DNA of 64,000 nucleotides. Origin: Escherichia coli. Its GTDB lineage: Bacteria > Pseudomonadota > Gammaproteobacteria > Enterobacterales > Enterobacteriaceae. How positions within the stretch are numbered: the first letter of the stretch is position 1; every line of letters starts with the position of its first letter. Positions 37,891 to 38,046 of this stretch are shown here, piece after piece. The stretch is taken from NCBI RefSeq assembly GCF_003334785.1, contig NZ_QOWV01000002.1; one strand, written 5' to 3'. Position numbers and translations under genes: made by a program. The notes under the pieces were generated by a model. It was given only the letters and a program-made list of their open reading frames with translations, was not told the origin of the DNA and did no database searches.

Positions 37891-37966
37891 TGGTGGGTCG
37901 TGCAGGATTCGAACCTGCGACCAATTGATTAAAAGTCAACTGCTCTACCAACTGAGCTAACGACCC
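37891..37966 (-). tRNA. lysV: tRNA-Lys (anticodon UUU)
   Basis: Reverse complement reads GGGTCGTTAGCTCAGTTGGTAGAGCAGTTGACTTTTAATCAATTGGTCGCAGGTTCGAATCCTGCACGACCCACCA; cloverleaf with CCA end. Confidence 0.95.
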
Positions 37967-37970
37967 GAGT

Positions 37971-38046
37971 GGTGGGTGATGACGGGATCGAACCGCCGAC
38001 CCCCTCCTTGTAAGGGAGGTGCTCTCCCAGCTGAGCTAATCACCCC
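37971..38046 (-). tRNA. valU: tRNA-Val (anticodon UAC)
   Basis: Reverse complement reads GGGTGATTAGCTCAGCTGGGAGAGCACCTCCCTTACAAGGAGGGGGTCGGCGGTTCGATCCCGTCATCACCCACCA. Confidence 0.95.

Follow-up and report, generated by a model that had tools for sequence, protein, structure and literature searches.

Probable Assembly Collapse of Tandem tRNA Genes at the valU Locus of an Escherichia coli Contig

RESULTS

A Val-Lys tRNA Operon between xapR and gltX

The window, by which we mean the whole 64-kb stretch of Escherichia coli DNA that was analyzed, contains three tRNA genes in total according to ARAGORN (Lys, Val, and Ala), and the Rfam tRNA matches concur. Two of the three, a single tRNA-Val(UAC) and a single tRNA-Lys(UUU), lie between xapR and gltX. 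ARAGORN and Rfam agree on this point, which had already been made in the initial annotation of the sequence. That annotation placed the pair at 37891-38046; the start is correct, whereas the end lies one base beyond the Val gene, whose boundary is 38045. The flanking genes were identified by their 99.97%-100% identity to annotated MG1655. The features of the locus are listed below in window coordinates.

36883-37782, plus strand: xapR, flanking gene (open reading frame list; identity to annotated MG1655 and J53)
37860-37886, minus strand: Rho-independent terminator hairpin of the operon, AAAAAAGCGCC-CTAAA-GGCGCTTTTTT (direct reading)
37891-37966, minus strand: tRNA-Lys(UUU), in the lysV position (ARAGORN; Rfam tRNA, 79.2 bits)
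37967-37969, minus strand: Val-Lys spacer of 3 nt, GAG on the plus strand and CUC in the transcript (direct reading)
37970-38045, minus strand: tRNA-Val(UAC), single copy (ARAGORN; Rfam tRNA, 65.9 bits)
38063-38090, minus strand: valU operon promoter, TTGACT, 16 nt, TATAAT (promoter scan, 11/12 matches)
38304-39719, plus strand: gltX, flanking gene, divergent from the tRNA operon (open reading frame list; 100% identity to MG1655 gltX)
40745-40820, plus strand: tRNA-Ala(GGC), single copy (ARAGORN)

The Val gene is identical in sequence to K-12 valU, valX, valY, valT, and valZ, and the Lys gene is identical to all six Lys(UUU) genes of K-12. Across the junction of the two genes, the transcript reads ...CACCCACCA-CUC-GGGUCG.... 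The valU promoter is intact, diverges from gltX, and is 100% identical to its counterparts in MG1655 and AF58. At the other end of the operon, the unique xapR-proximal sequence follows directly after the lysV terminator. This terminator was not reported by a consensus terminator scan of the window; the hairpin was seen by direct reading, and the scan was probably defeated by A/T runs that lengthen the stem. With its promoter, its two tRNAs, and its terminator all intact, the sequence as written would encode a working two-gene Val-Lys operon, which holds no mechanistic novelty.

The position between gltX and xapR, the sigma-70 promoter with its leader, and a Lys(UUU) gene followed by a terminator are all those expected of the valU operon. 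The three Val genes with their 44- and 46-nt spacers and the CUUC before lysV, which are equally part of that operon, are not found. The initial annotation gave three tandem Val copies plus Lys for this site in K-12, which is accurate: in MG1655, the interval between gltX and xapR holds valU, valX, valY, and lysV (2520931-2521328). This K-12 operon (b2401-b2404) shares with the window its position, promoter and leader, Val and Lys genes, and terminator hairpin, but differs in having three Val genes instead of one, CTTC instead of CTC between Val and Lys, and a 156-bp RtT-like repeat. The CTC spacer and the absence of the 156-bp repeat had escaped the initial annotation, as had the reduction of the alaW-alaX pair to one copy.

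Comparison with MG1655 and the Closest Complete Genomes

By BLAST, the window corresponds, in reverse complement, to MG1655 from approximately 2,493,511 to 2,558,709 at 99.97% identity, and the two are 100% identical from Val through gltX. The window is from a K-12-like phylogroup-A chromosome that is a close relative of K-12, not K-12 itself. It differs from MG1655 in lacking CPZ-55, IS186C, and the RtT-like unit, and in having one Ala(GGC) gene and one Val gene. The genes eutA and eutB are contiguous (window 1-700), the CPZ-55 prophage that splits the eut operon of K-12 being absent; nupC and pdeA are likewise contiguous (window 43236-43247), without IS186C. We considered and rejected the possibility that these two absences are artifacts, as most E. 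coli genomes, AF58 included, have neither element. The absences of CPZ-55, IS186C, and the RtT-like unit are ordinary features of the lineage, since AF58 and HSP425 also lack all three.

The closest complete genomes over 25 kb are AF58, HSP425, and NCTC9087, each at 100.0% identity. All three carry three Val genes plus Lys, a 4-nt spacer, and two Ala genes. Across all 64 kb, the window is separated from AF58 by six SNPs, one homopolymer indel, and three changes at tRNA loci: two Val units are missing, the Val-Lys spacer is 1 nt shorter, and one Ala unit is missing. Structural differences from AF58 are confined to these three changes. All three Val copies of MG1655 and of AF58 map onto the one Val of the window in BLAST alignments. 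The only SNP near the tRNA locus, at 35066 in xapA, is synonymous. The sole indel outside the tRNA loci lies in the intergenic A-run between lpxP and ypdK (window 60866-60877), where the window has A6 at 60872 and both MG1655 and AF58 have A7; this difference is either real or a sequencing error.

The Val-Lys Spacer Matches a Junction of the lysT Operon

The valY-lysV spacer of MG1655 is the 4-nt CTTC (CUUC in RNA). The CTC of the window instead belongs to the lysT operon, where it joins valZ to lysY. The spacers of the two operons have been described as CUUC for valY-lysV, CC for valT-lysW, and CUC for valZ-lysY; in the same work, all five Val(UAC) genes are identical, as are all six Lys(UUU) genes and the terminators downstream of lysV and lysQ (Agrawal et al., PMC4176162). 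In MG1655, valZ-lysY is 100% identical to the 155-nt Val-CTC-Lys block of the window. The flanks, in contrast, are not those of the lysT operon, which lies 1.74 Mb away in MG1655, but the valU leader on one side and the xapR-side terminator on the other. Because the CUC spacer belongs to valZ-lysY and not to valY-lysV, the locus reads as a chimera that runs from the valU leader through Val, a lysT-operon junction, and Lys into the lysV terminator and xapR flank.

A locus of this composition could have arisen in the cell by ectopic gene conversion, in which the valU locus received a copy of valZ-lysY that ended within the identical Val and Lys genes on either side, together with an independent unequal crossover that removed one of alaW and alaX. 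The attraction of this explanation is that a single event gives both the loss of Val genes and the CTC spacer. The valU operon is also dispensable, as it can be deleted in the laboratory (PMC11480407). If conversion did occur, two distant tRNA operons would have exchanged sequence, a modest natural example of how tRNA gene dosage can be cut, from five to three for Val(UAC) and from two to one for Ala(GGC). We regard it as unlikely in view of the surveys described below.

Both Perfect Tandem Repeats Are Reduced to One Copy

In the corresponding region of AF58, perfect direct repeats of at least 40 nt occur only as the Val triple and the Ala pair. The window has one copy of each, and repeats of 80%-89% identity are preserved. 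In MG1655 and the closest relatives, alaW and alaX are two identical copies 39 nt apart, separated by AATTTTGCACCCAGCAAACTTGGTACGTAAACGCATCGT; the window keeps one, and BLAST blocks (37970-40825 and a block starting at 40745) overlap on it. This reduced Ala array, 2.7 kb from the Val locus, is a second tandem tRNA array that is down to one copy. At the valU operon, the sequences missing between the Val genes are the valU-valX spacer, ACTACTTTATGTAGTCTCCGCCGTGTAGCAAGAAATTGAGAAGT, and the valX-valY spacer, CTTTCTCGCCAGCTAAATTTCTTGTAAAAATGTGAAGTACCGAAGT. Gene conversion would require the loss at alaW-alaX to be a second, independent event with a base rate of 2.4% (single Ala in 130 of 5426 complete E. 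coli genomes), in a chromosome that is six SNPs from AF58 over 64 kb.

Copy Number and Spacer in Complete E. coli Genomes

Complete E. coli genomes were surveyed with E-value cut-offs such that only alignments uninterrupted through leader, Val, and Lys pass. A single Val gene beside the valU leader was found in 26 of 5426 genomes, 24 of which have CTTC and two CTC. Approximately 318 of the 5426 have two Val genes or fewer, many K-12 laboratory derivatives among them, so real copy-number variation at the valU locus exists. This variability counts in favor of gene conversion. A single Val or a single Ala taken alone is biologically possible, because real genomes with each exist (26 and 130 of 5426, respectively). 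The two together are another matter. If both were real and independent, their joint frequency would be approximately 1e-4, and the CTC junction lowers it further. Among the 60 of 130 single-Ala genomes that were listed, at least two (Xuzhou21 and HNSQ2209) also have a single Val, against 0.29 expected.

The window's junction was then considered in its context. In the order xapR flank, Lys, spacer, Val, the CTC spacer was found in none of 5410 complete genomes (upper 95% bound, 5.5e-4), which argues against gene conversion. The best match across these four elements is 99.5% identical; a 1-nt gap is always present in the best matches, and therefore no complete genome among the 5410 has the window's junction in this context. 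The 331-nt locus of the window was likewise found intact in no complete RefSeq E. coli genome (5426).

Unequal crossover between valU and valY offers a second route to a single Val gene within the cell, and the 24 complete genomes with leader-Val-CTTC-Lys are what it would produce. K-12 TG1 (CP196935) is a case in point: it has one Val, like the window, yet its CTTC spacer, its RtT unit, and its two Ala genes are all in place, and it is likely a genuine deletion with its other repeats intact. The native CTTC is not retained in the window, and its allele is unseen in the finished genomes of the lineage. The crossover would thus have to be followed by a separate 1-nt deletion from CTTC to CTC and joined by a separate Ala loss, that is, by three independent rare events within 3 kb, and the product of the 1-nt change, absent in this context from 5410 complete genomes, would match the valZ-lysY junction by coincidence. 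We consider this series of events highly improbable, and less likely than gene conversion.

Two complete genomes with CTC at the valU locus deserve description. In STK78-E (NZ_CP162185.1), the locus (5554-6155 of the extracted region) reads Val-CTC-Lys-135 nt-Val-CTTC-Lys-RtT. This is a lysT-operon-like insertion in which the 135 nt correspond to a lysT-valT-type spacer, and it is either a real ectopic exchange or a misassembly. The presence of lysT-operon-type sequence at the valU locus of a complete genome suggests that exchanges of the kind invoked by gene conversion may happen. In AS19-RrmA- (NZ_CP027430.1), a derivative of E. coli B, there is a single Val-CTC-Lys (6001-6155 of the extracted region) that matches MG1655 valZ-lysY at 155 of 155 positions, and E. 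coli B-ZidR has three Val genes and CTTC. The AS19-RrmA- locus is probably a collapsed one in a record of finished status. The CTC signature of collapse thus also occurs in at least one RefSeq "complete" genome. In B-lineage and O157 genomes, a FlxA-like gene takes the place of yfeN-xapABR.

The Same Arrangement Recurs in Short-Read Contigs

Public metagenome contigs were scanned for the valU leader followed by Val, two to four nucleotides of any kind, and Lys. The scan returned 27 matches, many of them in contigs with SPAdes-style NODE names. The spacer is CTTC in 18 and CTC in nine. About half of the 27 contigs are from other enterobacteria, whose native arrangement may differ; 11 are E. coli by flank identity. 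CTC is present in five of these 11, compared with two of the 26 single-Val complete genomes (Fisher p = 0.016). Three contigs (L025, L029, and L031) are overt chimeras, which begin with the valU leader, Val, and Lys and then continue into spacers of the lysT operon, and several contigs end inside Lys. One contig (L040) has the architecture of the window in a different E. coli lineage.

The Ala pair behaves in the same way. Six of the E. coli contigs extend as far as the Ala locus, and five of them have only one Ala gene, compared with 130 of 5426 complete genomes (p = 5e-8); among single-Val short-read metagenome contigs, 10 of 11 have one Ala. The combination of one Val, CTC, and one Ala typifies short-read contigs and is practically never seen in finished genomes. 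That the identical combination is common in short-read contigs argues further against gene conversion. The collapsed or chimeric arrays (contigs L015-L041 and AS19-RrmA-, CP027430) resemble the window in their single Val beside the leader, frequent CTC, and single Ala; unlike those contigs, the window runs cleanly for tens of kilobases on both sides. Searching the literature on tRNA collapse in short-read assemblies, or on the evolution of tRNA genes in E. coli (Withers et al., 2006), yielded nothing directly usable.

Repeat Collapse as the Probable Origin of the Locus

The initial annotation left it undecided whether the copy number truly differs or tandem repeats were collapsed during assembly. 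Both occur in E. coli data, and collapse is favored here. The window has fewer tRNA copies than its closest relatives, and the rest of the region is collinear and near-identical. The differences are confined to perfect repeats, all such repeats are affected, and the CTC junction is that of a paralogous locus, valZ-lysY. On this evidence, which is drawn from sequence comparison, we judge it very probable that the locus reflects assembly collapse with a chimeric path and not a real difference in copy number. If so, each element of the window's combination is common.

As to how this would come about, we infer both the assembly technology and the traversal of the graph. A short-read assembly based on a de Bruijn graph would represent each set of identical 76-nt tRNA genes only once. 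Across the valU and lysT operons, the five Val(UAC) genes share one sequence and the six Lys(UUU) genes another, so that each set would merge into a single node; between these two nodes, the CTTC, CTC, and CC junctions would form parallel short paths. The assembler may have entered from the valU leader, passed through Val once, taken the CTC path of valZ-lysY to Lys, and left through the lysV terminator toward the xapR flank. An assembly made in this way would omit both the 44- and 46-nt spacers between the Val genes and the 39-nt Ala spacer.

A further alternative keeps the copy number real and blames only the spacer. In a long-read or hybrid assembly, short reads of valZ-lysY that were mis-mapped to the valU locus could have mis-polished CTTC to CTC, and the A6 at 60872, where MG1655 and AF58 have A7, could be a sequencing error. 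Mis-polishing leaves unexplained why both perfect tandem arrays are single while close relatives have full sets, and the window matches none of the 5426 RefSeq complete genomes. We give this explanation very little credence; it ranks below gene conversion and marginally below unequal crossover.

With collapse as the preferred explanation, the source strain most likely carries a normal valU-valX-valY-lysV operon and a normal alaW-alaX pair. Any tRNA count based on this assembly would then be short of at least three genes within the window, namely two copies of Val(UAC) and one of Ala(GGC), and its Val-Lys junction would be unsuitable as a strain marker. A collapsed or chimeric assembly could be recognized from sequence alone where CTC adjoins either the valU leader or the lysV terminator and xapR flank and only one alaW-alaX copy is present.

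A Natural Polymorphism Downstream of lysV and Other Repeats

The 156-bp unit found 3' of lysV in K-12 comprises an RtT-like element (Rfam RF00391, 47.3 bits in MG1655), an 18-nt fragment of the Lys 3' end, and a second copy of the terminator. The unit is bounded by direct repeats of approximately 61 nt and matches sequence downstream of lysQ. The regions compared were window 37848-37908 and MG1655 2521329-2521592, and an Rfam scan of the window did not find RF00391. The unit is present in MG1655, NCTC9087, J53, and TG1 and absent from AF58, HSP425, and ET670. We considered whether its absence might be a third collapse and rejected this, as AF58, HSP425, and many natural lineages are also without it. 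The presence or absence of the RtT-like unit is a natural polymorphism.

Elsewhere in the window, a pair of inverted repeats of approximately 140 nt and 89% identity (9795-9933 and 20716-20857) is also found in MG1655 and AF58; these are probably intergenic repeats of the REP/BIME type. Among GTDB species representatives, the leader-Val-Lys scan gave only one match, in scaffold7 of Citrobacter sp. JGM124 (5819-6531 of the extracted region). Two tandem copies of leader, Val, 4-nt spacer, and Lys lie there 585 nt apart, in what looks like a duplicated promoter-Val-Lys unit.
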